DNA of 64,000 nucleotides, from the IMG/VR virus record IMGVR_UViG_3300017774_005745, positions 64,001 to 128,000 of that record. One strand, 5' to 3'. A model generated the notes under the pieces. The model was given only the letters and a program-made list of their open reading frames with translations. It did no database searches and was not told the DNA's origin. Shown in pieces: positions 4,395 through 29,361 of this stretch. Within the stretch, counting starts at the first letter, position 1, and each line of letters opens with the position of its first letter. Source of the DNA: a virus. The translations under genes and the position numbers were made by a program.

Positions 4395-7300
4395 GTGGAT
4401 AACCTGACTCCAGAAGGTTCGTTCGACGTATTGAAGAACAATATCACCACTACCATCTCTTCTTTCTTTCCGTACGAAGGAAAAACGCGCCGTCTCCAGA
4501 TTGACAAAATCTGGGTGGACGACAAGCTCAATACCGAAGACATCCAGTCCCAAGCCCAGGCAAAGGACATGGATAGGACGTGGGGCGTTCCCGTTAAGGC
4601 GGACATCTCGCTCGTCGATAAGTTGACCGGCAAGGTCATTGATAAGAAGTCGATGACTGTTGCAAGACTTCCGAAGCTCACCAATCGATACGGATTCATT
4701 GTCGATGGAAATGAGTATCAGGTCGACCACCTGTTTCGTTTGAAGTCGGGAGTATACTCCCGCATCCAGGACAACGGTGACTTGGAGTCCGAGTTCAACC
4801 TTGTTCGTGGTCCTGCCGGTAACCGCTTCTCCATCAAGCTAGAAAGAGAGAAGAAGAGATTCTTCATCAAGAAGGGCGATGCACACATCCCTCTCTATCC
4901 CATCCTCAAGGCGATGGGAGTCTCAGATGATCAGATGGAGAAGGACTGGGGAAAGGAAATCTTTCTCGCGAATAAGCCCAAGACAGAAGACAAGACCCTC
5001 AAGTCGCTTCAGTCTTTCTTCAAGAAGACCTCCTTCGATGATGTCGTTGAGCCTACCGATGTAGCAGGCTACGGTAAGTACGTTCACGACTTCTTCGAGA
5101 AGACGGTTCTTCGCCCCGACACGACAAAGATTACTCTCGGTCGAGAGGCGTCTAAAGTAGACGGCCAGGTTCTTCAGATTGCTGCGAACAAGATTCTCGG
5201 TGTCTCTAGAGGAACGCATCAGCCAGACGACCGAGATAGCCTCGCCTTCAAGGAGATTGTCTCGGTCGAGGACTTCCTTCCTGAGAAGATTGAACGCGCT
5301 GCCAAGACCATCAAATCAAAGCTTCGCAACACGATTGACCTCAAGGACAAGCTGTCTGTGTCTGAGGTTGTATCAGCGGACCTCTTTGCCCGCCCCATCC
5401 GTGAGTTCTTCACAAAGGGCGGCTCACTGACAGAGCGACCGGACCAGACGAACCCAATCTCAATGATGTCCGGTCATCGTAAGACCACCCTCATGGCCTC
5501 GGACTTGGGCGGTATCAAGCGAGACCACTCACTCACCGATGAGATGCGTGTCGTGAATCCGAGCCACTTCGGCTTCCTCGACCCAATGCACACGCCTGAG
5601 TCTGAGCGTACTGGCATCACCCTGCATCTTGGCATGGCTGCTCGAAAGAATGGAAAGGAGCTGGAGACTCCTGTCTTCGACATCAAGAAGAACAGCATTC
5701 AGTACATGACGGCTCCCGCGTTCCACGAAGTGTCGGCGGTTCTTCCCGACCAGGTTCGTTGGGTCAAAGGAAAGCCAGTTCCAGTTGCTCCAACGGTCAA
5801 GGTCAAGCTCCCAGGCGGCTCCATTGAGCTCCGACCATTCTCTGAGGCTTCGTTCGTATTGCCCTCCTCCAAGGGCATGTTCGATATGGCCTCGAACCTG
5901 ATTCCCTTCCTTGCATCCAATCAAGGAAACCGCGTCTCGATGGCGGACAAGCAGATGGAGCAGGCTATCAGTTTGAAGTTCCGTGAGTCGCCTCTTGTGC
6001 AGTCTAAGACGGACCACGCTCAAGCTGGAATGACCTTCGAGAAAGTACTCGGAGGATTCAGTTCGCACAGAGCCTCTGTTTCAGGAACTATCAAGTCAAT
6101 CAAAGACGACCACATCGTCATCAACGACGGTAAGAAGAACCACCAAGTTCACCTCTACAATCACTTTCCCTTGAATGACCCGAAGGGAATGATGCACTCT
6201 GAGGCGGTGGTTGCTGTTGGAGACAAGGTCACTCAAGGACAGGTTATCGCCGACACCAACTTCACCAAGAAGGGTGTCTTGGCTCTTGGGTCCAACCTTC
6301 GAGTTGGTTACATCCCGTACAAGGGGTACAACTACGAAGACGGTATCGTCATCTCCGAGACGGCGTCTCAGAAGCTCAGCTCAGAGCACTTGCATAAGAA
6401 GTCGGTTGAGTTCGACCCAGAGAACGATGTGGTCTCGAAGCAGAAGTTCCTGTCGTTCGCCGCGACACGGGCCAATCAGCTTACGAAAGAGCAAATCAAT
6501 CTCCTCGACGATGATGGTATCGTTCGAGTTGGTTCGAAGGTCAGTCCTGGGCAGGTGCTGATTGCCGCCGTCGGAAAGAACCTCGCGTCGCGCCAGAGTG
6601 GGGCTCTTGCTGCCCTCGGCAAGAGAGCATTCCAGCCATACAAGGATAAGTCACTTGTATGGGATGAAGACCATCAGGGAGAGGTCGTCAAGGTAATCAA
6701 AGACCCGTCTGGAAAGAGTGCGAAGGTCTACGTCAAGACAGTCGAACCTCTCGTTATCGGCGACAAGCTCTCAGGACGGCACGGTAACAAGGGCATCGTG
6801 ACCATGATCCTTCCGGACCATGAGATGCCATTCACCAAGGACGAGAAGGGGGAGAAGAGACCTCTTGAGGTTCTTCTCAACCCTACTGGCGTTCCGACTC
6901 GAATCAACGTCGGACAGGTGCTTGAGACTGCCGCTGGGAAGATTGCGGAGAAGACGGGCAAGACATACATCGTCAATAACTTCGAAGGACCCATCTCGGA
7001 CAACACCCAGAAGGTCATTCAAGAGCTCAAGCAGCACGGTCTCTCAGACGAAGAGAACGTCTACGACCCAATGCACCCGAGTAAGGTCCTTGGTTCTGTT
7101 CTCGTCGGTCCTCAGCACCTTCTCAAGCTCAAGCACCAAGTAGAGAAGAAGCTCACCGTTCGAGGCGGCGGGACTGACCTCAATGGACGCCCTCTCACCT
7201 ACGACGTCGACAAGTCTCCTACGAAAGGTGGCGAACGAGGCGGTCAAGGAGTTGGAGCTCTCGACTTCTACTCTCTGTTGGCGCACAACGCTCGTCACAA

Positions 7301-10300
7301 CATTCGTGAGATGGCGACGTACAAGTCTGACATGCAGGATTCTACCTTCTGGAACATGATTCAAGAAGGGTATGAGCCGCCGCCACCGAAGGCTCCCTTT
7401 AGCTATCAGAAGTTCGTTGGTCTCTTGAACGGACTGGGCGTGAATGTCGATAAGAAGGGCTCTGTTCTTCAGCTCACTCCGCTCACCGATGCAAAGGTAA
7501 TGGAGATGGCAGGAGGAGCACGCGGTGAGCTCTCGAAGCCTCACCTCCTGCTTCGTGCAAAAGACTTGAGAGAAGAGAAGGGTGGCCTCTTCGACCCCAT
7601 CGCTACAGGCGGTCTCTCTGGCAACAAGTGGAGCTTCATCAAGCTCATCGAGCCAATCCCAAATCCCATCTTCGTTGGCTCAAACCACCGGCCTGGACCC
7701 GTTCCTTCCCTTCTTGGATTGAAGATGAAGGAGTTCGAGTCTGTGATGACGGGGGAGACGAAGCTCAATGGAAAGACGGGAGGGCATGCAGTCCTCGATG
7801 CTCTCAAGAAGGTGGATGTTCCTGGAGAGATGAAGTCTCTCCGAGAGAAGCTCCCGACACTTACTGGAGCTGACCTGGACAGAGCAAACAAGAAGCTGAA
7901 GTACCTCATGGCTCTCTCTGAGACAGGGCTGAGTCCCGACGTGGCGTACATGATGAAGGTGGTTCCGGTCCTTCCTCCTGCTTTCAGACCCGCGACCGTT
8001 ACCCACAAGGGAGACCTTCAAACTTCGTCACTCAACGGTCTCTACAAGAACATCGCAATCCTCAACAACAAGCTCACTGAGGTTGATCCGAGAACGTACT
8101 CAGAGACGCACAGAGCTCCGCTACGTTCTCAACTCTATGAGAGCGTGAAAGCGCTGCAGTCTATTGGCGGTTCTGTCGGTTACGACATGGATACTCCTGC
8201 GAGCTCCAAGAGAGCCCTGAAGGGTATCCTTGACATCATCGGAGGAGGAGAGGGAGAGCAGCCTAAGGATGCCTTCTTCCAATCCAGACTCATCAAGCGC
8301 CGTCAGAACCTTTCGATTCGTTCTACCATCGTTCCAGAGCCCAAGCTTGGAATTGACGAGGTCGGTCTCCCTCGTGGTGCGGCAATGGAGCTCTACAAGC
8401 CATTCGTTGTCGCCGAACTCTTCAAGACGGGCTTCCGGCCTCTTGATGCGCAGCTTGAGATGAAGAAGGGGTCGAAGGTCGCATTCGATGCTCTTGAGCG
8501 TGTGGTGAAGGACCGTCCTCTTCTTTTGAAGCGTGACCCCTCTCTCCACAAGTTCTCAGTCATGGCGTTCACCCCGAAGCTGATTGAGGGCAAGGCTATT
8601 CAAATCCACCCTCTCGTCACTGGCGGCTATAACGCAGACTTCGACGGGGATACCATGGCAGGGACTGTTCCTCTCACCAGAGAGGCAGTCGATGAAGCGA
8701 AGAAGATGTTCCCGTCTAAGAACCTCTTCTCGCCGACAACTGGCGCTGTCATGTACTCGCCAACTCAAGATTCAATGTTGGGACTCCACCTCATCTCTCG
8801 ATGGGGCACTAAGACGTCCAAGACCTTCGCGTCTCCAATCGAGCTCAACAAGGCCTTCGACAAGGGTGAGGTGACTCCGACAGACGTAGTGAAGGTCGGA
8901 GGGAAGGAAACGACTCTTGGTCGGCTTCTCTTGGAGTCGAGAATGCCGAGAGACTTCCACCTCAATAAGGACATTCTCCACAACCCTCTTTGGGTCATTG
9001 ATAAGAAGTCACTGACTTCTCAAATCATCACTCCGCTTGCAAAGAACCATACGAGAGACTTCGCCCATGTCGTTGACCAATTGAAGGACCTGGGTAACGA
9101 GTGGGCCTACAAGATGGGGTTCTCGTTCGGTCTGAAGGACCTTGCGACGATTCCGCAGCGTGGGAAGATTCTTGGAGATGCCAACAAGCTCGCCATCGAC
9201 ATCAAGAAGAATGTCAAAGACAAGGGAGAGCAAGACAAGCAACTCATCGAAGTCTACCAGAAGGCCACAGAGCAACTGGAGCACGCAGCCAGAATGCCTT
9301 CAGGTCAGAACAGACTGGCAGACATGGTTATCTCTGGGGCACGTGGTAAGCCTGAGCAGCTTCGCCAGATGATTGCGGCTCCCATGCTGGTCCAAGACTC
9401 CCATAACAACACCATACCGACCCCTATCCTTCGAAACTACGCAGAGGGATTGGATATTGGAGATTATTGGCTCGCACAGCACGGTGCTCGAAAGGGCACT
9501 TTGCAGCGCGTTCTTGGCACTTCTGAGCCTGGTGTTGTTTCGAAGGACATCATCAACTCCACTATCGCCACCATCATCGCCTCTCCTGACTGTAAGACGA
9601 CGCATGGGATGCTTATGGAGGTCGGTCACAAAGACATCAACGACCGCTACCTCTCAAAGAGCTACAAGCTCAAAGACGGACACGAGATCAAGGCAGGCAC
9701 CCTCATCACTCCGGAAGTTCTCAACCACTTCAAGAACTCAAAGATTGATAAGGTCTTGGTACGGTCTCCTCTTAAGTGCCAGCACGGAGAGGGAATCTGT
9801 GCGAAGTGCTTTGGTCTGAACGAGAGCGGCAAGCTCCACGAAGTCGGCATCAACATCGGAGTGCTTGCAGGGCAGGCACTCTCAGAGCCTGCTGTTCAGA
9901 TGGCGATGGATGCCTTCCATACGGGAGGTGTTGCATCCGGTAGAGGTGCAATGTCTGTGGACCGTCTGACTCGTCTCAGGAACGCGCTGAATCTTCCAGC
10001 AAAGCTCAAGAACTCTGCTACACTCTCAAGAGTCACTGGTAAGATTACAAACATCAAGAAGGACGCCGTCGGTGGTGTGGACCTCTTCATTGGAGACGAG
10101 AAGCACTTCGTTCCAAAGGACCTGGTCAATCACGACATCAAGGTGGGGGACGAGGTCAAGAAAGGACAGCAGGTCTCTCACGGATTCACGAACCCACACC
10201 ATCTTCTCCCACTCACTGACATGCACACTGTTCAGAACCACCTGACCAATGAGATGTATGGTGGGCTGTATGAGAAGGAAGGCGTTCGAAAGAGAAATGT

Positions 10301-10658
10301 CGAGGTCGTCGTACGTGCTCTCACGAATCTAACGAAGGTAAAGGACCCAGGGTCGAGCGACTTCATGCAGGGCGATATCGTTCCGACTTCTGTCGTTGAG
10401 GAGTTGAATAGAGGCCTGTCGAAGGATAAGAAGCACATCACACACGGGCCTATACTGAAGAGCATCTCTCAGATTCCGCTCACAGGAACGACCGACTGGA
10501 TGAGTCGCTTGAACTACAGAGAACTTCACAGCACTCTGCAACAGGCGGCGGCACAAGGATGGAAGTCAGATATCCACGGCAAGAATCCAATCCCAGGCGC
10601 TGCCTTCGGTGCTGAATTCGGGAAGCCTTCTGCAGGTAAGCCTAAGGGTCACTACTAA
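4395..10658 (+). CDS. rpoBC: DNA-directed RNA polymerase, single-chain beta-beta' fusion (phage-encoded)
   Basis: Beta motifs GYNYED, GDKLSGRHGNKG, NPTGVPTRINVGQ, KLKHQV; beta' motifs catalytic NADFDGD (8631-8651), bridge helix HGARKG, trigger loop EPAVQMAMDAFHTGG, and Zn site DC...RSPLKC...ICAKC. GTG start. Confidence 0.97.
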   Translation: MDNLTPEGSFDVLKNNITTTISSFFPYEGKTRRLQIDKIWVDDKLNTEDIQSQAQAKDMDRTWGVPVKADISLVDKLTGKVIDKKSMTVARLPKLTNRYGFIVDGNEYQVDHLFRLKSGVYSRIQDNGDLESEFNLVRGPAGNRFSIKLEREKKRFFIKKGDAHIPLYPILKAMGVSDDQMEKDWGKEIFLANKPKTEDKTLKSLQSFFKKTSFDDVVEPTDVAGYGKYVHDFFEKTVLRPDTTKITLGREASKVDGQVLQIAANKILGVSRGTHQPDDRDSLAFKEIVSVEDFLPEKIERAAKTIKSKLRNTIDLKDKLSVSEVVSADLFARPIREFFTKGGSLTERPDQTNPISMMSGHRKTTLMASDLGGIKRDHSLTDEMRVVNPSHFGFLDPMHTPESERTGITLHLGMAARKNGKELETPVFDIKKNSIQYMTAPAFHEVSAVLPDQVRWVKGKPVPVAPTVKVKLPGGSIELRPFSEASFVLPSSKGMFDMASNLIPFLASNQGNRVSMADKQMEQAISLKFRESPLVQSKTDHAQAGMTFEKVLGGFSSHRASVSGTIKSIKDDHIVINDGKKNHQVHLYNHFPLNDPKGMMHSEAVVAVGDKVTQGQVIADTNFTKKGVLALGSNLRVGYIPYKGYNYEDGIVISETASQKLSSEHLHKKSVEFDPENDVVSKQKFLSFAATRANQLTKEQINLLDDDGIVRVGSKVSPGQVLIAAVGKNLASRQSGALAALGKRAFQPYKDKSLVWDEDHQGEVVKVIKDPSGKSAKVYVKTVEPLVIGDKLSGRHGNKGIVTMILPDHEMPFTKDEKGEKRPLEVLLNPTGVPTRINVGQVLETAAGKIAEKTGKTYIVNNFEGPISDNTQKVIQELKQHGLSDEENVYDPMHPSKVLGSVLVGPQHLLKLKHQVEKKLTVRGGGTDLNGRPLTYDVDKSPTKGGERGGQGVGALDFYSLLAHNARHNIREMATYKSDMQDSTFWNMIQEGYEPPPPKAPFSYQKFVGLLNGLGVNVDKKGSVLQLTPLTDAKVMEMAGGARGELSKPHLLLRAKDLREEKGGLFDPIATGGLSGNKWSFIKLIEPIPNPIFVGSNHRPGPVPSLLGLKMKEFESVMTGETKLNGKTGGHAVLDALKKVDVPGEMKSLREKLPTLTGADLDRANKKLKYLMALSETGLSPDVAYMMKVVPVLPPAFRPATVTHKGDLQTSSLNGLYKNIAILNNKLTEVDPRTYSETHRAPLRSQLYESVKALQSIGGSVGYDMDTPASSKRALKGILDIIGGGEGEQPKDAFFQSRLIKRRQNLSIRSTIVPEPKLGIDEVGLPRGAAMELYKPFVVAELFKTGFRPLDAQLEMKKGSKVAFDALERVVKDRPLLLKRDPSLHKFSVMAFTPKLIEGKAIQIHPLVTGGYNADFDGDTMAGTVPLTREAVDEAKKMFPSKNLFSPTTGAVMYSPTQDSMLGLHLISRWGTKTSKTFASPIELNKAFDKGEVTPTDVVKVGGKETTLGRLLLESRMPRDFHLNKDILHNPLWVIDKKSLTSQIITPLAKNHTRDFAHVVDQLKDLGNEWAYKMGFSFGLKDLATIPQRGKILGDANKLAIDIKKNVKDKGEQDKQLIEVYQKATEQLEHAARMPSGQNRLADMVISGARGKPEQLRQMIAAPMLVQDSHNNTIPTPILRNYAEGLDIGDYWLAQHGARKGTLQRVLGTSEPGVVSKDIINSTIATIIASPDCKTTHGMLMEVGHKDINDRYLSKSYKLKDGHEIKAGTLITPEVLNHFKNSKIDKVLVRSPLKCQHGEGICAKCFGLNESGKLHEVGINIGVLAGQALSEPAVQMAMDAFHTGGVASGRGAMSVDRLTRLRNALNLPAKLKNSATLSRVTGKITNIKKDAVGGVDLFIGDEKHFVPKDLVNHDIKVGDEVKKGQQVSHGFTNPHHLLPLTDMHTVQNHLTNEMYGGLYEKEGVRKRNVEVVVRALTNLTKVKDPGSSDFMQGDIVPTSVVEELNRGLSKDKKHITHGPILKSISQIPLTGTTDWMSRLNYRELHSTLQQAAAQGWKSDIHGKNPIPGAAFGAEFGKPSAGKPKGHY

Positions 10659-11749
10659 TGGCTGTTACAAATCAAGGAACAATCCCGGCGTTCATCGAGT
10701 CGGGTAGAGTACTCGATGTCGATATCAGTTCGTTCACTCTCTCTGTTACGACTCAGTTCTCGAAGAAGCCCCAGACCGGAATTACCTGGTCCTCTCCATA
10801 TCTTCACTTTGTGAATGGAGAAGGAATCCACTTCATGCCGGAGGTTGGGAGTCTTTGTTGGATTTGTTTCCCCTCTGATGGAAACCGGCCCTTTGTACTT
10901 GGATGGGCTCCTGCTGCAGACGAAGGAAACTTCAGAGCACGCAGGCCAGACATGAATCCTGGTGACCTCTACCTCGGCACACGAGACGAGAACTTCCTGA
11001 TTCTCCGTCGTGGTGGGGTAGTTCAAATCGGGGGAGGCCCGCTTTCTCAACGGCTCTTTCTCCCCGTCACAAATACAATCAAGGATTTCTGTGAGAACTA
11101 CTCTCTCCAGACTCTTGGAGGAGAGCTCAGTTGGACTGTTCAGAGGTCTGAAAACGATACCGACGGCAACAGACCCACTGTCTTGAAGGTCCAGGCAAGA
11201 GAGTTCGCTTCGGACGAGAAACCCCTTGCAGAGCTTCAAGTCGGTTCCCACGGAAGCGGCCAGAATACTATCTTGAGTCTGACAATCAAAGAATCTGGAT
11301 CTCAAGGAGCTGCGAGGAAGATTTCCCTTACACTCGGTAAAGATGGGAATGTGACCTGGGAAGTTGCTAAAGACGTCGTCTGGACAGTTCAGGGCAAGTT
11401 TACCATCGACGCCCAGCAGGATGTGACTGTAAAGAGCGCGGCTAAGGTCACCGTCAGTGGTGGGAGTACGGTTGAAGTACAAGGCCAGAGTGGTGTAACA
11501 ATTGAATCTGCTGTTGGAATCATCAACGTTAAAGCATCTACGATTAAAATGGGCTCTATGGTCTTGGTCGGAAATGCACCCCAACCGGTGGCACTTGCTC
11601 CTGCCTTGATAGGTTGGCTAGCAGCTCACATCCATTCTATCGTCCCAAACCCTGCCCTCGCTCTTCCAGGACCGCCTCAACCGACGACCCCTCCATTGGT
11701 GCCACCACCTGCACCTGCAATGACTTCGACCACTCTTCTGGCAACCTGA
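10658..11749 (+). CDS. Baseplate central spike (gpV/gp5/VgrG-like)
   Basis: N-terminal OB-fold signature (MPEVGSLCWICFPSDGNRPFVLG), beta-strand repeat region, and C-terminal HxH (AHIHS) metal-binding tip. Confidence 0.75.
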   Translation: MAVTNQGTIPAFIESGRVLDVDISSFTLSVTTQFSKKPQTGITWSSPYLHFVNGEGIHFMPEVGSLCWICFPSDGNRPFVLGWAPAADEGNFRARRPDMNPGDLYLGTRDENFLILRRGGVVQIGGGPLSQRLFLPVTNTIKDFCENYSLQTLGGELSWTVQRSENDTDGNRPTVLKVQAREFASDEKPLAELQVGSHGSGQNTILSLTIKESGSQGAARKISLTLGKDGNVTWEVAKDVVWTVQGKFTIDAQQDVTVKSAAKVTVSGGSTVEVQGQSGVTIESAVGIINVKASTIKMGSMVLVGNAPQPVALAPALIGWLAAHIHSIVPNPALALPGPPQPTTPPLVPPPAPAMTSTTLLAT

Positions 11750-11762
11750 TTCAAGGAGACCT

Positions 11763-14591
11763 ATGCGCCCGCTTTTCATTGATGAGACCTCTGAAGACTC
11801 GAAGACAAAGGAAGCGGGATTCACTCACCGTCTTTCTGAGACTCCTGATAACTGGGGTCAAGAGATTGGTAGCGAGCTTCATCGTCAGCTTCCGTTCTTG
11901 TCAGACTACGAGGTGAACGTCACCCTCGACAAGGTCGACCAAGGCCGGGGCTTTGCGTTTGGATACGCAGACATCTCGAATAGAACTGAGCGCCCAGAGG
12001 TTGAGCACGAGGAAGCGGGCATTCCCCACATCCGTGTTCCGCTCATTGCAGAAGAGCGTCAGGTTCGTCCGTTCTCCGTCTTTCTAGACGGTGAGAGAGT
12101 TCTTCCTCTCGGTGAAGAGAGAATTCGTGAGACTCTGTTCAACCCAGGAATGTTCGACCTCTCCACATCCGTGCCGAGAGACCCAAGTCTTGTCGAGCCT
12201 CTGATGCCTCCGCAGCGTTCTGGTATTGGTATGGGCGGCGAATACAAGATGGCCATGGCGTATCCAGAGCCCGCTTCTATTGCCACGAATCTCGATTACC
12301 GAGATGAGTGGCTCCGGAAGTTCGTTGGGACTGCTCTCTTCCAGAAGGCTATGGAGCTCCAGAAGCAGTTCCTGTCTCTTGACCAGGAAGACCTCTCACA
12401 GCGAGAGATGGAGCAGACGATTGAAGAGTCCTCTGGCCGTGCCTCACAGAGAATGGCCAAGAATCTCCAACGAGACGCTCTCCACTTGGAGAAGAGGAAC
12501 CTGGATGTAGAACTTCTCGCCGCTCAGGCAGGGGTTCCAACGTCTGAGGCTCCTTCTCCTCACGAGCAAGGACTCGATGCTTCGGCTCCAGAAGGTGCGA
12601 TGGAAGAGGCACCAGAGGAAGCTGCTCCTGCTCCCAAGGCTCCAAAGGAGAAGAAGGCCGGTATTCCGAAAGGCATGCAGGAACTTGCCAAGGGAAAGAA
12701 GTTCTTTCAGATGGATCCATACGTCCAGCGGAGAGTTGCTGCCAATAGTATGGGGAATGCGGCCAGGAAGCAGAAGAACCACGGCCACAAGATGCTCGAC
12801 ATCAAGGATGGACAGGTTCAGAAGAAGCGCGCAAAGGAGCTTCTTGAGAAGAATGCCTTCAAGCACATCTCGAAGGAGCAGTGGGAAGCCATCTACAAGA
12901 GCGACAAGATTCAGAAGATGATTCAGAAACACATGACCCACGACCACCCTGAGGTTATCAACGAGGTCTATTCGCTCGCAGCTAACCAATACGGATATCA
13001 CCCAAAGGTATACCCACCTTCTCCAGGTCAGCAGGCTCAGAAGGCACAGGCAGCTAACATGGGTGGGGCACCGAAGCCTGCGGCTGCCGCTCCAGCGGCC
13101 AAGCCAGCTACGAAGACGGCATCACTTCTTGAGGCAATTGCTCCGACGCTTCGTGAGACAGACAGAGACGCATTCGTTGAGAAGGTTGCAAACGACGCCA
13201 CCCTCCGTGCGGGCTTCCGTCGTTCTGGAATTGCCTCGGTTCTTGTCAACGTGATGGATACGAAGCTCGCATCCGCAAGGGACCGTATGTCTGCCCTTGC
13301 AGACGCAATCGAACCCTCCGTGGTTACCTTCCAGAAGCTCCCAGGTGGGGACTTCCTCGTCAAGTCAGCAAACGTTCAAGCGTTTGCTGGTGGCGAGCAG
13401 GCTCAGGGTCAAGTGGTTCCGTTCCAAGAAGTCGCCGAAGCAATCGGAACTGAGCCAGCGAGAGCGATGCAGCCAGGACAGATTGCAACTGCTGTGTCTG
13501 ACCCTGTTAAGGGCGACTCAGCAGACGAGTCTGAGTTCGACTCCATCTCTGAGTTTGGCCGCTACAAGGTCCAGGGAACCGACGGCAAGGAGCGGGAAGG
13601 CTGGGTATTCCCTCAAACGTTTGCTTGGGATGAGAACCTTACTCCACAGAAGACGGGTCTCTTCATCTCAGACAACGCGCACGCCATCCAGCAAGACTTC
13701 GCGGGCGCACGGGTTGCTGCAGAAGACATCAACCTTCCTACGGATATCCCCAAGGGTCTTGGAATCTTTCACTCGAAGAACGGAGACTCTGCCTCTGCTC
13801 CCATCGAAGTGAAGTTCGGTATGACTGGGTCTGACGGAGTTCCGAAGTACGTTGGTATTGATTCATTCGGAAACGAAGTCAAAGTCTCGGTTGTTCCTGG
13901 CCTCAAGACTCCTCAGAAGATTAGCGAAGGAGAGTATGCCCTCCCTCACGGTTGGGGATTCACTCGCCTTCCTTCGAAGGTCTCTCTTTCCGAGAAGTCG
14001 GATAGCATCGGCACTCAGTCGAAGTTGAAGAAAGAGAAGACATCTGCAGTTCTCTTCTACAACGGCGCATTCAACATCGTTGGTGGGTGTGGCCTCGATA
14101 AGGTGTCGGCTGACCTCCGCCACAGCATTGATGCGGTCGGTGCCGAGTTCATGCTGGGACTTCTCGGAGTTGATGGCGTTTCTGCCAAGCAGAAGGTTGC
14201 GGAAGCCCGTAAGATCGGGTCAGTGACCTTGACGGGACTCAAGACCATCGTTCCTCTCGCAGAGCGTTTCCAGGAGTCTATCAAAACTGCCTCGGCACTT
14301 CTGTCGAAGATTCCAAATCTCAAGAGAGACCTCATCAAGGAGGCCTCGATGATGGAGGACCAGGGAACCGTAGATAAGGTTCTTGCCCTGAACTTCGTCA
14401 ATCCTGAGAACCTCACCACGTTCATCGAGTATCTCCCTGAGCTTGAGAGATGCAGCGAGAACATGGCGGAGATGGTTCTTGCGGGCTACATGGGCATGAG
14501 AGAGATTCCTGTAGGTGCTGTAGAGCGTTCCATGAAGAACATGGAAGAGGTTGTCCAGAGCCTCAAAGCACTTCAGTATACTCAGGAGTAA
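11763..14591 (+). CDS. Large putative internal head protein (942 aa), modular, with about 11 K-x-A/S motifs
   Basis: Motifs KEAG, KMAM, KKAG, KNAF, KTAS (x2), KLAS, KSAN, KTSA, KVSA, KEAS separate compositionally distinct blocks. Function is inferred. Confidence 0.5.
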   Translation: MRPLFIDETSEDSKTKEAGFTHRLSETPDNWGQEIGSELHRQLPFLSDYEVNVTLDKVDQGRGFAFGYADISNRTERPEVEHEEAGIPHIRVPLIAEERQVRPFSVFLDGERVLPLGEERIRETLFNPGMFDLSTSVPRDPSLVEPLMPPQRSGIGMGGEYKMAMAYPEPASIATNLDYRDEWLRKFVGTALFQKAMELQKQFLSLDQEDLSQREMEQTIEESSGRASQRMAKNLQRDALHLEKRNLDVELLAAQAGVPTSEAPSPHEQGLDASAPEGAMEEAPEEAAPAPKAPKEKKAGIPKGMQELAKGKKFFQMDPYVQRRVAANSMGNAARKQKNHGHKMLDIKDGQVQKKRAKELLEKNAFKHISKEQWEAIYKSDKIQKMIQKHMTHDHPEVINEVYSLAANQYGYHPKVYPPSPGQQAQKAQAANMGGAPKPAAAAPAAKPATKTASLLEAIAPTLRETDRDAFVEKVANDATLRAGFRRSGIASVLVNVMDTKLASARDRMSALADAIEPSVVTFQKLPGGDFLVKSANVQAFAGGEQAQGQVVPFQEVAEAIGTEPARAMQPGQIATAVSDPVKGDSADESEFDSISEFGRYKVQGTDGKEREGWVFPQTFAWDENLTPQKTGLFISDNAHAIQQDFAGARVAAEDINLPTDIPKGLGIFHSKNGDSASAPIEVKFGMTGSDGVPKYVGIDSFGNEVKVSVVPGLKTPQKISEGEYALPHGWGFTRLPSKVSLSEKSDSIGTQSKLKKEKTSAVLFYNGAFNIVGGCGLDKVSADLRHSIDAVGAEFMLGLLGVDGVSAKQKVAEARKIGSVTLTGLKTIVPLAERFQESIKTASALLSKIPNLKRDLIKEASMMEDQGTVDKVLALNFVNPENLTTFIEYLPELERCSENMAEMVLAGYMGMREIPVGAVERSMKNMEEVVQSLKALQYTQE

Positions 14592-14594
14592 CGA

Positions 14595-15443
14595 ATGAAA
14601 CACCCAGCTCATCACTTCATCAAGTACTTGATGGTGAAGGACCCCAAGACTGCCAACGCTGAGATTCTAAAGCGCTTGGAGGACTTTGGATTTCTATCTC
14701 CAGATGCGCCTTACCTGGAATTCATCAGACAAGAGCTCAAGGAAACTCCAGTAGGGTTCGACCCAGCAAATCGAATCCACCGTCCTTCGATGAGCTACCT
14801 TCGTCGTCATGGTATCTACGAGCTCTTCCATCCGTCTGACGCGATTCGAGAAGCATGGAAGATCCTCACCGACCCTTCTATTCGACTGAACGTTGAGCAG
14901 GCCTTGATGGCACGGTTGGATAGAAAAGCCATCGCTCTGAAGCTGAACAAGAAGAACGGCTGGCATCTCTCTGAGTCTGGGATGAAGGCGTTCCACGATA
15001 CCTTCTGGAACGTCGAGCTCCTCACTTGGGATGAGTGGGGCCGGTTCCTCTACGGCAGGTCAGGGATGTACGAGCGATACATGGCCATGCTCCAGGCGTC
15101 TCCTGAGCTCGCCATGTTCCATCTCCAGCTTCAACAGAACGTTGAGTCAAAGAACATGATTCAGCGCACGCAAGAGATTGCGTACTTCACCCTTGAGGAA
15201 GTCAATAGGAAGCCGGGCACAGGGCCAGACAAGGTGAAGGCCATCGGTGTACTTGGAAAGACCATCGTTGACTGTCACGATGCTCTCTCGACCTCTGATA
15301 TGGCGCTCAAGGACATCCTCAAGAACTTTGAGAGATTCCGCATGGACCATCCTCAGATTCCTCCTCCGGACATCAAGCAGCTCGCTCCAGGTGGGAGCTA
15401 CACTGGCAGTGGTGTTGAAGAGAAAGAAGTAAAAACCCACTGA
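14595..15443 (+). CDS. Hypothetical protein (282 aa), possible HTH DNA-binding or small-terminase-like
   Basis: Helical protein with an HTH-like segment (RKAIALKLNKKNGWHLSESGMKAF). Function is unconfirmed. Confidence 0.3.
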   Translation: MKHPAHHFIKYLMVKDPKTANAEILKRLEDFGFLSPDAPYLEFIRQELKETPVGFDPANRIHRPSMSYLRRHGIYELFHPSDAIREAWKILTDPSIRLNVEQALMARLDRKAIALKLNKKNGWHLSESGMKAFHDTFWNVELLTWDEWGRFLYGRSGMYERYMAMLQASPELAMFHLQLQQNVESKNMIQRTQEIAYFTLEEVNRKPGTGPDKVKAIGVLGKTIVDCHDALSTSDMALKDILKNFERFRMDHPQIPPPDIKQLAPGGSYTGSGVEEKEVKTH

Positions 15444-15449
15444 GGTTGT

Positions 15450-16121
15450 ATGCCCTTCAAGTCCAAAGCTCAACAGCGATTTATGTTCGCAACCCACCCA
15501 CGCATGGCAAAGCGTTGGGCACACGAGACCAAAAACATGAAAAAGCTCCCAGAGAAGGTGAAGCAAGCGGGAATCCCAAAAGGGCTTAGAGCTATTGCGG
15601 AATCTGCTTTTGATACTGCCGGAGACCTCTCAAAGGCACAGCAGTACGCTGCTAGCAGAAATGCCGCGAACATCCACGGCAGAGGTCTAGGAATGGCCGC
15701 CCGCGATGGGTCTTTGATGAGTAAGTCGTATAATAAGAGACTTGCTAAGTCTGAAATTGAGCTTGCAAAGAAGCAGGTCGATTCTTCCTATCCAACTACA
15801 AGAGCAAGCAGACAACTCCAACACGGTATTGAAAATAGAAGAATGAGTAGAGACCTCCTATCTAAAAAGGCGGAGGCTGATAAAATCAAGGGCGGCCTCG
15901 CGGACCACCTGAAGTCCTCGGACTTCCCAAAGAAGAAACTGAAGGCAGGTCAGACGGTGGAGAAGGAACACACCAAGGACCCTGCAATCGCCAAAGAGAT
16001 TGCAAAGGACCATCTTACCGAAGATGGGAACTACTACGAGAAGTTGAAGAAGATGGAGAAGTCTGCCTTTGAGAAGATGTCTGCCAAACTGAAGAAGAAG
16101 ACGTCTGGGAAGTACTGCTAG
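15450..16121 (+). CDS. Three-module protein: PFKSKAQ module + AT-rich middle module + DUF5661-like C-terminal domain
   Basis: C-terminal VEKEHT...AKEIAKDHLTED.NYYEKLKKME matches my recollection of DUF5661. Modules are joined by KQAG and KKAE. Confidence 0.55.
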   Translation: MPFKSKAQQRFMFATHPRMAKRWAHETKNMKKLPEKVKQAGIPKGLRAIAESAFDTAGDLSKAQQYAASRNAANIHGRGLGMAARDGSLMSKSYNKRLAKSEIELAKKQVDSSYPTTRASRQLQHGIENRRMSRDLLSKKAEADKIKGGLADHLKSSDFPKKKLKAGQTVEKEHTKDPAIAKEIAKDHLTEDGNYYEKLKKMEKSAFEKMSAKLKKKTSGKYC

Positions 16122-18073: not shown

Positions 18074-19867
18074 ATGACCGTAGTTACCAGTGAAGAGTAC
18101 TTCAGAAACAACTCCAATGTCGTCATATCGGAGAGTGGTCAGCCTGAGCCAAAGGAAGAATGGGATTACGAGAAGGAGGTCTTCGAGGGGTTCCTCGACC
18201 CTGATGAGATTGCGAAGCAGCAATCCGCCCTCCTCTCAGTAACGCCTTCGCAGTTCGTAGAGTTCTCCGTTCGAGTACCCGACAAGAAGTCTCAGAAGTT
18301 CCTCCCGTTTTCCTTTGATGGGAGAAAGTACCTTCGTCTGCCGTATGACACGCCCGCAAAGCGAACCCTCTACAAGTGTGGACGACAGGTAGAGAAGTCT
18401 ACCCTGCTAGGTAACAAGACGCTTGCCTATTGCTGCATCATCAACGCCTTCAACGTACTCTACGTCTCTCCTACAAACCAACAAACGAAGACCTTCTCTC
18501 AAGACCGTCTCAAAGAGCCAATGGAGACTTCGGAGGTCCTAAAGGCGTGGACCACCACGAAGCTCAGCGACAGCGTTTTCTTGAAGAAGTTCATCAATCG
18601 AAGCCAGATTACTCTCCGCTACGCATACCACAACGCAGACCGTACCCGTGGTATCCCTGCGGATATGATTCTCCTGGACGAGCTCCAGGACATCATCACG
18701 GAGAACATTCCGGTTATCGAACAGTGCGCCTCGCACTCACCGTTCAAGATCTTCATCTATTCTGGAACCCCAAAGTCGTTCGATAACTCCATCGAGTACT
18801 ACTGGTCGAACTACTCTACTCAGAATGAGTGGGTTGTCCCTTGCGACCACCACGGTACTCCTTCGGACCCTTCGACCTGGTTCTGGAATGTCCTTGGGGA
18901 AGAGAACATCGGAAAGAAAGGTCTCATCTGCTCCAAGTGCGGAGAGATTATCAATCCAATGCGCCCAGAGTCTAGATGGGCGATGATGAATGCCTCTGTG
19001 AAGGACAAGCTCACAGAGCCTTACGAGGGGTACAGAATTCCTCAGCTCATGGTTCCGTGGTTGAAGTGGAGTGAAATCCTAGACTCCTACACCACGTACC
19101 CACGACAGAAGTTTTTCAATGAGGTTCTTGGCGAGTCCTTTGACTCTGGAACCCGTCCACTAACTCGGCAAGACGTTATCGACAACTGTGACCCGAGTCT
19201 TCGAATGACTCCAGAAGGTCTCAGTGCCATCAAGAGCAAGATGTCAGGAGGCATGGACATCTTCGCAGGTATTGACTGGGGCACTGGTGAGAACACGTAC
19301 ACCATCATGTCCTTGGGGACGTACATCGACGGGAAGTTCACCATCTTCTACATCCATCGATTTGAAGGACAGGAGATGGAGCCACCGGTTCAGATAGAAA
19401 TCATTGCCGAGCTCATTCGGAAGTGGGACGTCAAGCTGGTTGGGGCAGACTACGGAGGCGGTTTCGATAGAAACGACGCCCTGGCGAGAATCTTCGGTAG
19501 AAACCGTATCGTCAAGTACCAGTACTCTACTCCAGGCCAGAAGGTGAAGTGGGATGAGAATCTCCACCGTTTCCTCGTTCACCGAACAGAGGTCATGACG
19601 GATATGTTCACCGCCATCAAACGAAGAGACGTCTTTCGGTTCCCGAACTGGGAGCAGTTTGAGGATCCGTTTGGTAAGGACCTTCTGAACATCTTCAGCG
19701 AACTGAACGAGCAGCTTCGGCAGATTCAGTACATGAAGACGCCAGATGCTACAGACGACTCGTTCCACTCTATCTTGGTCTGTCTTCTTGCCTCGATGCT
19801 GAAGTACCCACGCCCTGATATTCTCTCTCCGACGGCTAAGACATCAGGTGGTGACTCTGACGCCTAA
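18074..19867 (+). CDS. terL: Terminase large subunit
   Basis: Walker A-like CGRQVEKST, Walker B ILLDE, coupling motif YSGTP, RNase H-fold nuclease GIDWG / ADYGGG / DDSFH, and Zn-finger insert CDHH...CSKC. Confidence 0.9.
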   Translation: MTVVTSEEYFRNNSNVVISESGQPEPKEEWDYEKEVFEGFLDPDEIAKQQSALLSVTPSQFVEFSVRVPDKKSQKFLPFSFDGRKYLRLPYDTPAKRTLYKCGRQVEKSTLLGNKTLAYCCIINAFNVLYVSPTNQQTKTFSQDRLKEPMETSEVLKAWTTTKLSDSVFLKKFINRSQITLRYAYHNADRTRGIPADMILLDELQDIITENIPVIEQCASHSPFKIFIYSGTPKSFDNSIEYYWSNYSTQNEWVVPCDHHGTPSDPSTWFWNVLGEENIGKKGLICSKCGEIINPMRPESRWAMMNASVKDKLTEPYEGYRIPQLMVPWLKWSEILDSYTTYPRQKFFNEVLGESFDSGTRPLTRQDVIDNCDPSLRMTPEGLSAIKSKMSGGMDIFAGIDWGTGENTYTIMSLGTYIDGKFTIFYIHRFEGQEMEPPVQIEIIAELIRKWDVKLVGADYGGGFDRNDALARIFGRNRIVKYQYSTPGQKVKWDENLHRFLVHRTEVMTDMFTAIKRRDVFRFPNWEQFEDPFGKDLLNIFSELNEQLRQIQYMKTPDATDDSFHSILVCLLASMLKYPRPDILSPTAKTSGGDSDA

Positions 19868-22292: not shown

Positions 22293-22709
22293 ATGCTCCA
22301 GAAGCGATTGCTGAAGCTCTCTTCAGTGTCACAGGCACTTCGCAAGCTTGCTGCTCGTGGGATGGGAAATCTTGCGGCAGTCGAGCGACAGGCGACCTTT
22401 AAGAACTTACAGAGCAATGCAGCCGCAGAGCACGCGGCCACTAAGGCAGCCCCAACTCCAGCCCCTACCCCAGTACAAACGAAATCGGCCCCAGTAGCTG
22501 CTGCATCGAAGGCGGCTCCTGCCGCAAAGCCAGGAGTGATGGGTCGAATCGCAGACCACTTCGGGAAGCAAGTAGGTAAACACGGAGTTCTCCCCGTCGC
22601 TGCTTCTGTTGCTGGTGGAGCGATGCTCGCATCCGGTGCAGCCAAAGTTCCGTCAAACTACCGAAAGTTTAAAGCTGGGTTTAGGCCAGAAAATCACCCA
22701 TACCACTGA
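22293..22709 (+). CDS. Basic Ala/Pro/Lys-rich putative internal head protein
   Basis: KLSS and KLAA near the N-terminus, AP-rich linker, hydrophobic VLPVAASVAGGAMLASG; GGAGG RBS. Confidence 0.45.
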   Translation: MLQKRLLKLSSVSQALRKLAARGMGNLAAVERQATFKNLQSNAAAEHAATKAAPTPAPTPVQTKSAPVAAASKAAPAAKPGVMGRIADHFGKQVGKHGVLPVAASVAGGAMLASGAAKVPSNYRKFKAGFRPENHPYH

Positions 22710-23389: not shown

Positions 23390-24970
23390 ATGGATAAGCA
23401 AATCCAGTTCTACGGTCAGACCGAGTCAGGCATCTTCTGCCAGTCTCTCTTTGGTTCCTACGGGACCTTTGAGAAGCAGGCAGGTGCTCCTCCGTTTGCT
23501 GACTGGGATACTGGAGATGCTCTTCGCAAGTACCTCAGCAAGCTTTCGAAGGAAGATAGAAAGAGCAACATCTACGTACTGGTGAATGCGCTTGGAGCTG
23601 GTGAGTACTTCGGCTCGAACATCAATTCCGATTACTTTCCTTGGAATGCCCTATCCCACGAAGGCAACGACTACGGGTTCAAGACGTTCGAGACCTTCGC
23701 CCACGCCTACCAGCACCACAAGAACAAGGACCCGACCCGAGCTTTCGGAGTGCCTGTTCTTTCTGTTCTGAATCACCCAATGAAGAGAGTCGAGCTCATC
23801 GTTCGACTCAACCGAGTCAAAGCAAAAGAAGAGCAAGCAGACGGTATCATCACTCGCATCGAGGGTGGTGAGTTTCCGGACGTATCGATGGGATGCAAGG
23901 TCCCATTTGACGTCTGCTCTATCTGCGGTCAGAAGTCGAAGACGCGGTTCGATTACTGCCAGCACATGATGCCTCCTGCTGAGCTCAGGAGCGTCTATGG
24001 GCCAAACAAGATTCTCCCAGATGGTCGTAGAATCTACGTCATCAACACACAGCCTAAGTTCTTCGACATCAGCTTCGTCTTCATCGGCGCTGACAAAACC
24101 GCTAAGGTCATGGCAAAGGTCGCTTCAAAGGGTGACTTGATTTGCCTGGGAGATGTTTGTGCTGTTCCTTCTCTCTCAACTCACGTACAAGAGGTCACTT
24201 CAGGTGACCCTGTTTCTGTCGCTGGAATGTTCAAAGCTGCTTCAGGAACGTGTGCTTGCGGGTGTGGGACCTGCGACCCATTCGAGAAGCTCGCCGAAGG
24301 ATTCGAAGTAAAGACCAGTGAGATTCTGAAACAAGTCCCTGCTGGTCACTTCACGAAGACGGTTCTTCCTGCCATTGAGGCTTCGGAACCAGACCTGGGA
24401 ACGGACTCTCTGGATGAGATGGCCGAGGGTCATTCGTTGAAGGACATCGTTGGCAATACCATGGGTCTTGGTATCGTCCTAAAGCCCCACGAGTTCCAGC
24501 GAATCGTTCTTATCCGTATGGGTGAAAAGGACCTGGCAAATGAGCTTGATTCAACTAACAGTGTCTTTAGACGAGTCGAAGGTGTCAATCCATTGCTCGA
24601 CACCGACCCATCTCTGGATGGCTCCAAACTCATCGACCTGCTCAAGTCCTTTATCTCTTCTCGTTCCGGACTTGGAGAGCCGCTCAAGCTCCGGTCAGCT
24701 CGTCCAGCGATAAATAAAATCCCTCTTCCCACTCGTAAATCAATCGAACATCCTATCTTAGACAAGGTCAGTGCTGCCTATAACGGTTATAGGCAGAATC
24801 TTTTGACGAAACTTTCAAAGGTTGAAGCAGTGGTTCAGAGCGACCCGAAGTTGAGAGCACAAATCGAGGGACGAACATTGTCGAGTCTGTTTGATAAGAC
24901 TTCTTCGCTCTCCTCTATCCTGACTCCCGATTCTGTGATGTACTTGAAGGGCGCATACACTGAGAGGTAA
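23390..24970 (+). CDS. Prohead (capsid maturation) protease with C-terminal extension
   Basis: HK97/assemblin-type pattern: His in HHKNKD, Ser in VSMGC, followed by CSICG...YCQH; lies upstream of the scaffold-like genes and capsid. Confidence 0.75.
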   Translation: MDKQIQFYGQTESGIFCQSLFGSYGTFEKQAGAPPFADWDTGDALRKYLSKLSKEDRKSNIYVLVNALGAGEYFGSNINSDYFPWNALSHEGNDYGFKTFETFAHAYQHHKNKDPTRAFGVPVLSVLNHPMKRVELIVRLNRVKAKEEQADGIITRIEGGEFPDVSMGCKVPFDVCSICGQKSKTRFDYCQHMMPPAELRSVYGPNKILPDGRRIYVINTQPKFFDISFVFIGADKTAKVMAKVASKGDLICLGDVCAVPSLSTHVQEVTSGDPVSVAGMFKAASGTCACGCGTCDPFEKLAEGFEVKTSEILKQVPAGHFTKTVLPAIEASEPDLGTDSLDEMAEGHSLKDIVGNTMGLGIVLKPHEFQRIVLIRMGEKDLANELDSTNSVFRRVEGVNPLLDTDPSLDGSKLIDLLKSFISSRSGLGEPLKLRSARPAINKIPLPTRKSIEHPILDKVSAAYNGYRQNLLTKLSKVEAVVQSDPKLRAQIEGRTLSSLFDKTSSLSSILTPDSVMYLKGAYTER

Positions 24971-28236: not shown

Positions 28237-29361
28237 ATGAGTGCCGTCCCAGCAAAAGTAATGAACGATCTCTTCTTCGAAAAGATCGCAACGACCGAAG
28301 GCAAGGAGAAGATTGCCGAGTTCGGTGGAACGTACATCCGAGACCGTCTGCGTGAGGTTTCGTTTGCCCGCAAGATTCTCCCACCGCAGCCCGTGCAGCG
28401 CACCGAGTGCCAGCGTTCAGTGAACCACGACACCCTGGTGAAGATCATCGACATCGAGCCAAACTCGAAGGCCGTTGCTCTTACCTTCCGTGGCCAGCCA
28501 ACCGCTCGCTTCATCCGCGCTCCTCGTTTCGAGATTCCGTTCTTCACGATCTCGTCCGAGAAGTTTGAGAAGACGGAGCAGGAACTGCTCGCCTACGAGA
28601 TGCCCATCACCAAGATCATCGAAGAGAACTCGGTGAAGGACATCCAGGAAATCGAAGACCGTCAGTTCTTGACGTTCATCGAGGCGGCTGTTCAGGCGTA
28701 CCAGCTTGATGCAAACGGCAACGTTGCCACTGCATTCAACGCCACCAACGTCATCGCGAACTCGGTTGTTGGTGCCTCTGTGGTCAAGGGTGAAGGTACC
28801 CTGGCTGCTGGTGCAAACGACTTCGTCATCTACCCAATCCTCAAGCCGGACTTCGTGAAGCTCAAGAAGCTCCTGCACCGCCGTCGCCTGCGTGCGAACC
28901 AGATGGTCATGACCGAGCCGGATTATGACGACTTGACCAACTGGACCATCCAGGATGTTGGTATGACCATCGCTGGCGAGACTGCCACTGAGGGTTGGAA
29001 GGCCAACACGGTTGTCGGTCTGAAGATCATCCGCACCATCAAGACGGACCTCCTCCGCGAAGGTAACGTCTACTGCTTCACCGCTCCTGAGTTCATGGGC
29101 CGCTTCTACATCCTGAACCAGACCAAGTTCTACATCGACAAGATTGCGAACTTGATCACCTGGCAGTCGTGGGAAGACATCGCAATCGGTATCGGTAACA
29201 TCGCATCGATTGTGAAGCTGGAGCTCTTCGGAGGTTCAGTGACCCCAGGCGCGACGGATGTTGGTTTCGCGAACCTGTTGCCGAAGGCTGAGACTGACCT
29301 CTTCGCCATCAACAACCGCGCTGACGACGGTCTTACTGTCCCAGCCGTTGACCAGTTCTAA
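28237..29361 (+). CDS. Major capsid protein (HK97 fold)
   Basis: LREVSFARKILPP N-arm/E-loop pattern, size 374 aa, strong codon bias, followed by a terminator. Confidence 0.85.
   Translation: MSAVPAKVMNDLFFEKIATTEGKEKIAEFGGTYIRDRLREVSFARKILPPQPVQRTECQRSVNHDTLVKIIDIEPNSKAVALTFRGQPTARFIRAPRFEIPFFTISSEKFEKTEQELLAYEMPITKIIEENSVKDIQEIEDRQFLTFIEAAVQAYQLDANGNVATAFNATNVIANSVVGASVVKGEGTLAAGANDFVIYPILKPDFVKLKKLLHRRRLRANQMVMTEPDYDDLTNWTIQDVGMTIAGETATEGWKANTVVGLKIIRTIKTDLLREGNVYCFTAPEFMGRFYILNQTKFYIDKIANLITWQSWEDIAIGIGNIASIVKLELFGGSVTPGATDVGFANLLPKAETDLFAINNRADDGLTVPAVDQF

Follow-up and report, generated by a model that had tools for sequence, protein, structure and literature searches.

Why should a small gene in the head region of a large phage carry, between two domains, a segment that its close relatives lack or replace, and why should that segment begin and end at the same tripeptide, Lys-x-Ala (K-x-A)? 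The question is raised by an open reading frame (ORF) of 223 amino acids (aa) at 15450..16121 on the plus strand of a 64,000-nt stretch of the virus record IMGVR_UViG_3300017774_005745. This stretch, called the window here, comprises bases 64001-128000 of a single phage contig of 196,807 bp, and positions are those of the window unless the genome or another contig is named. Judged from its sequence, the ORF appears to encode a protein that is built of modules and belongs to the head gene region of this 197-kb phage, and the swapping of cassettes at K-x-A joints is well supported by the comparison of alleles. The explanation favored here, with moderate confidence, is that the joints of this modular protein would be cut by a prohead protease resembling gp21 of phage T4, and that the pieces would be released.

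The first-pass annotation had read the ORF as three units, a reading with which the ORF call, Pfam, PHROG and the alleles of relatives agree. All three units lie on the plus strand. The N module (aa 1-40; 15450..15569), which runs from MPFKSKAQ to LPEKVKQA, matches phrog_1375 (E 6.7e-9) and ends in K38-Q-A40. This left joint (15561..15569) is the exact border of an indel relative to the related contigs L004 and L003. It is followed in frame by cassette A, a unit of 101 aa (aa 41-141; 15570..15872) that runs from GIPKGL to DLLSKKA and is absent or replaced in relatives. The cassette closes with K139-K-A141 (15864..15872), which is the conserved K-x-A ahead of the last unit and the point at which a tract of high identity stops. 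The last unit (aa 142-223; 15873..16118) belongs to the family DUF5661 (PF18905, E 4e-10), the Pfam match at aa 161-204 scoring 40.3 bits against a gathering cut-off of 27; conserved residues of this unit include E-x-E-H-T and D-H-L. In an AlphaFold2 (AF2) model, the N module and DUF5661 are predicted confidently (per-residue confidence, pLDDT, of about 95 and 95-98, respectively), the middle insert forms helices of low confidence, and both K-x-A joints lie in predicted coil between the two confident domains. A homologue search with the ORF gave a collinear homologue, 90% identical, as well as shorter alleles. The protein had no matches in a PDB sequence search or a Foldseek search, and a literature search for DUF5661 found no mention of the family.

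Cassettes and their borders

Four related contigs were fetched for close comparison of alleles, and the alleles of L006, a 141-kb relative, were compared as well. Cassette A is present in the window, L001 and L002. The L004 allele has no insert and reads LPEKVKKA/EADKIEGG (the slash marking the joint), and in L003 and L006 KVKKA is followed, in place of cassette A, by an unrelated filler of 39 aa. In more distant homologues, the N module and DUF5661 are separated by inserts of at least five unrelated kinds. It had been expected that the indel borders of homologues would coincide with K-x-A; they do, the exceptions being a 36-aa indel in another protein and the right-hand end of the L003 filler, both of which are weighed below. 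In L006, the DUF5661 gene (5782-6249 of that contig) lacks the first half of the N module, including MPFKSKAQ, and overlaps the end of the gene upstream; the truncated module may be a deletion scar or the result of an alternative start.

The DNA of cassette A is unusual in both identity and composition. The window and L001 are about 75-77% identical over the 13 kb compared. Within the ORF, identity is 77% over nt 1-87, 97% over nt 88-120, 98.3% (298/303 nt) over the insert at nt 121-423 and 81% over nt 424-672, with divergence returning within 1-3 nt of the K-K-A codons. The cassette is also identical to that of L002 at 298/303 nt. It is the sole island of at least 92% identity in the 13 kb, except for one 150-nt window at 12850. 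A hand count had put the guanine-plus-cytosine (GC) content at about 39% in the middle unit against about 57% beyond it, and computation gives matching values: 39.2% for 15721-15840, which is the 0.1 percentile of 120-nt windows across the 196.8-kb genome, and 56.7% for 15901-15960. The middle unit as a whole has a GC content of 47.2% (3rd percentile), the genome mean being 52.4%. The high-identity island together with its odd GC content points to a transfer long after the genomes diverged, and cassette A appears to have been exchanged laterally in recent time, either by passing between the lineages or by entering both from a common pool. The earlier description of the cargo as mobile stands as far as exchange by recombination is concerned (a 98.3% identical cassette in about 75% identical genomes) and does not extend to self-mobility, as no self-mobile DNA features were found. 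No further copies of the cassettes were found in viral contigs searched by exact 25-mer and peptide patterns or in metagenome contigs, and cassette A is rare in public data.

An endonuclease gene occurs next to this ORF in some relatives. A 169-aa Endonuclease VII gene (PF02945), whose product is probably a homing endonuclease, lies between the 282-aa and DUF5661 genes in L001 (9492-10001), L002 and L003 (9459-9968) and is missing at the same slot in the window (15443-15450), L004 and L006. Co-conversion driven by a homing endonuclease was considered as the cause of the high-identity tract and discounted: across the window, L001-L004 and L006, the presence of the Endonuclease VII gene is independent of that of the cassette.

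A second cassette is found in the 942-aa protein encoded at 11763..14591 on the plus strand, the central third of which had been described as stacked modules bounded by K-x-A. Alignment with relatives of 874-899 and 769 aa bears out this description. The protein contains 14 K-x-A against 7.3 expected, and a search of the cultured-phage collection gave no match to it. Cassette B (66 aa, GIPKGM...ELLEKNA; 12660..12857) lies between EKKA and EKNA and is an insertion found only in the window. It is missing in seven of seven relatives (L001, L002, L003, L043, L045, L046 and L047), all of which read K-x-A/FKHIS, where x is K, V, E or T and the K and A are constant. The cassette is flanked by a 12-bp direct repeat with a spacing of 198, the left copy being GAGAAGAAGGCC (12648..12659, coding for E-K-K-A) and the right copy GAGAAGAATGCC (12846..12857, coding for E-K-N-A), and the relatives' empty site holds a single copy of this repeat. 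The alignment places two other joints on the same strand. K162-M-A164 (12246..12254) is the left border of a segment missing in L045, a homologue 48% identical that lacks nearly everything between YK[ML]A and K-x-A/FKHIS; it reads YKLA/SA, then about 20 aa, then KKVA/FKHIS. At K451-T-A453 (13113..13121), a variable Ala/Pro/Gln-rich linker ends and a conserved SLLEAIAPT domain starts. The stretch just 3' of cassette B (12850-13000, FKHISKEQW...) is 92% identical to L001, which could reflect strong conservation or be part of a second exchange tract.

Cassettes A and B have no DNA similarity. A BLASTP comparison of cassette A with the 942-aa protein is marginal (E 0.17), and a profile of three A-type cassettes ranks the 942-aa protein first, self matches apart, among the 233 ORFs of the genome (E 1.7e-4). 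The start K(Q/K)AGIPKG(L/M), which had been claimed to be common to the middle unit and an internal unit of the 942-aa protein, was found by exact pattern search at both: K-x-A-G-I-P-K-G-[LM] occurs exactly twice in the ORFs of the genome, at 15561 and 12651. The shorter G-[IVL]-P-K-G occurs twice in all genome ORFs, each time directly after K-x-A, and [DE]LL[ES]KxA likewise has two occurrences, which close the two GIPKG units at their other end.

Each module was also expected to occur elsewhere, and each does: the N module as a standalone protein, DUF5661 in many fusions and cassette A in a different carrier. The N module forms standalone viral ORF clusters of 50-59 aa, is present in hundreds of carriers and opens many proteins of varied length. 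Both DUF5661 and the N module are found in fusions with NUDIX, ParB, HNH, PAP2 and crAss cargo-protein-1 domains, one Atlas cluster having DUF5661 fused to crAss_CARG1. An exhaustive profile-free search with cassette A alone gave one true relative, P0121 (58% identical); the second match, P0122, was disregarded as a low-complexity match. P0121 opens with a leader ending in DELEKIA, and its cassette follows S-K-L-A and ends in K-Q-A. Its carrier family (P0121-P0133) is unrelated to the 223-aa ORF, and the window genome holds its own copy of such a carrier (E 3e-15). Two alleles of the family are empty (AKHA/APTMSAM). The insert-bearing alleles, nine out of nine, read KHA/insert...K[E/Q/V/L]A/AP[ST]M and carry at least seven unrelated inserts, with a GVPKGL cassette in two alleles and a VSKEWIS cassette in two (P0129 and P0132). 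Because the right tripeptide keeps K and A while x varies, unlike the left K-H-A, these borders point to selection on the K-x-A motif rather than to target duplication. The VS-x-EWI module is also found after K-x-A in two proteins, of 612 and 332 aa, that are encoded just upstream of the window (genome 59792-61630 and 63087-64085) and appears to be a second shared cassette type.

K-x-A in head proteins and a candidate protease

Across the genome, K-x-A occurs about as often as expected (285 seen, 289 expected). In the head-region genes it is seen 93 times against 62.6 expected, which is the top of 400 X-x-Y patterns (p = 2e-4, marginal after correcting for 400 patterns and obtained with a gene set picked after looking), and in the rest of the window genome it is seen 192 times against about 226 expected. 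Salmonella phage Arash, a cultured relative that is about 40% identical, had no part in forming the idea and provides an independent test. In Arash gp218-226, K-x-A is seen 48 times against 23.4 expected, again the top of 400 patterns (p = 5.5e-6), compared with 203 against 233 in the remaining genome. This Arash set takes in the protease gp222, the scaffold-like gp220, gp223 and gp225 and the capsid protein gp226. The motif is thus concentrated in head genes of two phages, where it stands at leader ends and domain borders. The consensus of the head-gene sites differs from that of the rest by E at P4, T/L/I/V at P2 and A/S at P1'. LxE is weakly raised in head genes (62 against 44.9 expected), and the recurrent motif is K-x-A rather than the Glu-cleavage motifs (L/I)-x-E or A/S/G-x-E. 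K-x-A, as E-K-[T/L/I/V]-A followed by A/S, would appear to be a selected joint motif of head proteins in this phage clade.

The motif is found near the start of several head proteins. The major capsid protein (28237..29361, plus strand; phrog_2522) has K-I-A at aa 16-18 and 25-27, and its second K-x-A stands at a similar distance before R..LRE..F.RKIL.P as the K-E-A near residue 29 of the Arash capsid protein, as judged by eye rather than from a computed alignment. A leader of the form [F/L]-x-[D/S]-E-L-x-K-I-A is present near the N-terminus of six otherwise unrelated proteins of the window genome (genome 13566, 63087, 89902, i.e. window 25902, 141648, 156377 and 157718). The P0121 carrier family and the proteins of the variable locus in L045-L047 begin with it as well, and it is a candidate head-loading leader.

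A candidate prohead protease of 526 aa with a T4 gp21-like N domain is encoded at 23390..24970 on the plus strand. This protein matches phrog_18299, and tblastn linked it to annotated actinophage prohead and capsid-maturation proteases. Pfam did not recognize it, and it was placed by fold search: the AF2 model has a predicted template-modelling score (pTM) of 0.73, and its sole meaningful Foldseek match is T4 gp21 (5JBL; prob 1.00, TMt 0.58). On the predicted fold, the head gene module therefore contains a gp21-fold protease. Its own K-x-A sites at aa 29-31, 236-238 and 243-245 are conserved in 42 homologues, the last two lying just past the catalytic domain. Several of the 1389 homologues of its N domain carry DUF5661, which in P0206, P0252, P0270 and P0305 is inserted in frame in the linker that follows the catalytic domain, flanked by K[I/V/L]A and K[E/T/S/M]A. 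Among 51 diverse DUF5661 homologues, 27 have K-x-A 4-6 aa before the opening GG of the domain, compared with ~4% by chance on a per-position estimate. The DUF5661 insert of these proteases adjoins a Cys-rich C-x-C-x-C-x-x-C motif. Two other protease homologues, P0196 and P0272 (900 and 919 aa), have Hint and LAGLIDADG domains, which mark true inteins within the protease gene at other sites.

In the mechanism proposed here, K-x-A would be the signal at which the phage's own prohead protease, which resembles T4 gp21, cleaves, and the 223-aa protein would enter the prohead and be cut there into individual pieces. With a K-x-A at the end of every unit, each of them could be placed in frame behind any K-x-A and the product would still be processable. 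Processable joints would in turn allow different carriers to draw on a common pool of cassettes, which would include the GIPKG type, the VSxEWI type, DUF5661 and others. Units would be exchanged by ordinary recombination, either between homologous flanks or where the repeats that code for the joints offer microhomology, and selection would follow; the cassettes do not seem to be mobile in their own right. The K-x-A joints are probably where the phage's T4-like head protease cuts, and cleavage at K-x-A with release of the pieces is plausible and rather better than an even guess. A broader proposal, that K-x-A is a universal cleavable joint in a large and mostly uncultured clade of big phages with gp21-like proteases and that traded capsid cargo outpaces genome turnover, can be offered tentatively. 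Any peptide or domain cassette could then enter any head protein in frame, the protease included, travel into the capsid and be freed there. Fast turnover of cargo is suggested because a 98% identical cassette is found in about 75% identical genomes.

Alternative explanations

Several findings weigh against cleavage at K-x-A or against K-x-A as the border of every exchanged segment. To our knowledge, the gp21-family proteases that have been measured cut after Glu and not after Ala. The joints VKQA/G and SKKA/E of the 223-aa ORF fit the extended head-gene consensus loosely, and the head-gene counts of the window genome carry the limits given above. No homologue of the 223-aa protein was found in Arash, whose virion data thus lend no support to its presence in virions; these data are protein-level identifications published as gene and protein lists without peptides (PMC10585845). 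The right border of the L003 filler is NRQ/T and not K-x-A, and two of the four large indels relative to close relatives have a right border other than K-x-A. A 138-aa Ala/Pro-rich protein (22293-22709) is 41% identical to a 169-aa counterpart in L003 (16634-17143), and the borders of the 36-aa indel between them are not clean K-x-A. In the 223-aa ORF itself K-x-A is not over-represented (3 seen, 4.7 expected, in a protein with 17% Lys and 12.6% Ala); what is above chance there is the position of K-x-A exactly at the indel borders and not its number.

It can be argued that K-x-A is selected and yet uncut. The motif would then serve as a docking or loading signal for scaffold, portal or protease, or as a signature of linkers or helix ends, and the units would stay one protein. 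This agrees with the enrichment and conservation data, which show selection on K and A and not cleavage, with the many K-x-A sites inside helical scaffold-like proteins, and with the fact that a K-x-A specificity would be unlike that of any gp21-type protease measured so far. The layout of the sites makes it unlikely. K-x-A is found where other phages cut: about 25 aa into the capsid protein, just past the protease catalytic domain, where short N-terminal leaders end, and at several points along scaffold-like proteins, which matches the layout of the cleavage sites of T4 and SPN3US (PMC5694885, PMC10052503). A pure docking signal, moreover, has no need for K-x-A at both ends of every insert. 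Ordinary linker plasticity would dispense with selection as well: slippage or microhomology in Lys/Ala-rich linkers would generate the indels, and K-x-A at the borders would be a by-product of composition (AAG..GCN repeats). The Lys/Ala-rich composition of the ORF, in which more K-x-A are expected than seen, the 12-bp direct repeat around cassette B and the indel borders other than K-x-A are compatible with such plasticity. It is nevertheless improbable, as it does not account for nine of nine insert-bearing alleles of the P0121 family ending in K-x-A with varying x around unrelated inserts, or for K-x-A/FKHIS remaining constant in seven relatives that differ in x and in the residues preceding the motif. 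In addition, K-x-A is enriched only in the head genes of two distant phages and slightly depleted elsewhere, and homologous cassettes without DNA similarity between them occur in unrelated carriers.

A very improbable reading takes cassette A to be selfish DNA, namely an in-frame miniature transposon, intron or intein with the K-x-A repeats as target-site duplications. Presence or absence in close relatives, low GC content and near identity across diverged genomes would suit such an element, as would the repeats around cassette B and the homing-endonuclease-like Endonuclease VII gene beside the ORF in L001-L003, although that gene assorts independently of the cassette. There are, however, no terminal inverted repeats at the cassette ends, all 101 codons are open and in frame, the RNA fold is no better than that of shuffles (z = -0.29), and no Rfam match was found. 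Each cassette has one copy in 197 kb, with no more in two public contig collections, and A and B have common protein motifs and no DNA similarity. The right K-x-A differs from the left in most alleles, contrary to a fresh target duplication. A self-splicing intron was rejected on the open frame, the fold score and the lack of an Rfam match, and a miniature transposon resembling a Rickettsia palindromic element or a miniature inverted-repeat transposable element was rejected on the lack of inverted repeats at the ends and of A/B DNA similarity, the motifs being found in two places of the genome only. Inteins need Cys, Ser or Thr at the start, His-Asn at the end followed by Cys, Ser or Thr, and a Hint fold. 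The insert starts with Gly and ends with Lys-Lys-Ala followed by Glu, Pfam finds no Hint domain in it, and an intein was thus also rejected.

Known systems and surrounding genes

With cleavage at K-x-A as the preferred reading, the system can plausibly be viewed as head-protease processing of the T4 and SPN3US type with a different motif and an added layer of in-frame cassettes. Its layout, with units that carry their own K-x-A ends and joints in predicted coil, is also compatible with a viral polyprotein, which would be cut at defined sites into functional units. As in T4, a gp21-fold protease lies in the head module, one three-residue motif is found repeatedly in the capsid protein, the scaffold, the protease and small proteins of the head region, and short leaders end in the motif. 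As in T4, too, the gene is at a locus holding different cargo-like genes in relatives, the internal protein (IP) loci of T-even phages being similarly variable. The T4 internal proteins IPI-III and Alt have a capsid-targeting sequence that is removed by gp21 (PMC9026906, PMC9958956). Unlike T4, the motif is K-x-A and not (L/I)-x-E, and its cleavage is predicted here from sequence. The joints are found between stacked internal modules and not only after an N-terminal leader, and what is swapped is a whole cassette, in frame within a carrier gene, and not a separate gene.

In SPN3US and phiKZ, A/S/G-x-E is the site at which the prohead protease (gp245 and gp175, respectively) cuts numerous head and ejection proteins, with the removal of propeptides and internal segments (PMC5694885, PMC7411985, PMC10052503). 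The present phage is similar in having several copies of a short motif in many head proteins, in its large size and in its RNA polymerase gene among the virion genes. The motif differs, and mass spectrometry was used to map the sites in SPN3US and phiKZ, whereas the K-x-A sites are predicted. No description of in-frame cassette polymorphism at cleavage sites was found in the SPN3US and phiKZ literature. Polyvalent proteins of phages and conjugative elements, reportedly described by Iyer, Burroughs, Anand, de Souza and Aravind in 2017, also combine portable domains in many orders in virion-delivered proteins. The units considered here are, in contrast, small and mostly non-enzymatic peptides in short proteins, with a defined tripeptide joint that would be tied to the head protease. 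Rickettsia palindromic elements and other in-frame miniature insertion elements are short in-frame insertions in protein-coding genes that are present or absent between relatives, a feature they share with the cassettes. The cassettes differ in that their DNA has no palindromes or inverted repeats and forms no multi-copy family; what is conserved is the protein sequence alone.

New in the present case are the evidence at the level of alleles in a population and the recent transfer. If K-x-A is cut, it would be a new specificity for the protease fold of T4 gp21 and herpesvirus assemblin, and would provide a sequence rule for which proteins and pieces uncultured large phages load into the capsid, from where the pieces would probably be delivered to the host. 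The allele series would then indicate that cargo is exchanged as in-frame cassettes far faster than genomes diverge. Joints of this kind also suggest a rule, taken from nature, for designing foreign peptides that are to be loaded into phage heads. Salmonella phage Arash and the Vibrio phages D69, D148 and D181 are cultured relatives.

The 223-aa ORF lies in a block of virion genes on the plus strand of the window. The block includes a portal-like protein (85-2163), a single-chain beta-beta' RNA polymerase (4395-10658), a gp5/VgrG-like OB protein (10658-11749), and then the 942-aa gene, a 282-aa gene, the 223-aa ORF and a 153-aa gene, all on the plus strand. The large terminase (18074-19867) is further downstream, and acidic and basic scaffold-like proteins are encoded between it and the protease candidate. 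The slot between the 282-aa and 153-aa genes appears to be a variable cargo locus. In L045 (about 11530-12560), L046 (4871-6303) and L047 (11984-13512), relatives about 48-67% identical, other leader-tagged genes replace the DUF5661 gene. One of these genes resembles an NlpC/P60-type hydrolase by eye, and others encode Gly-zipper proteins. The single-chain RNA polymerase has 2087 aa in the window and 2446 aa in L001 (L001 1-3388), and the L001 protein has a faint LAGLIDADG_3 Pfam match; its extra length is likely an intein-type insertion.

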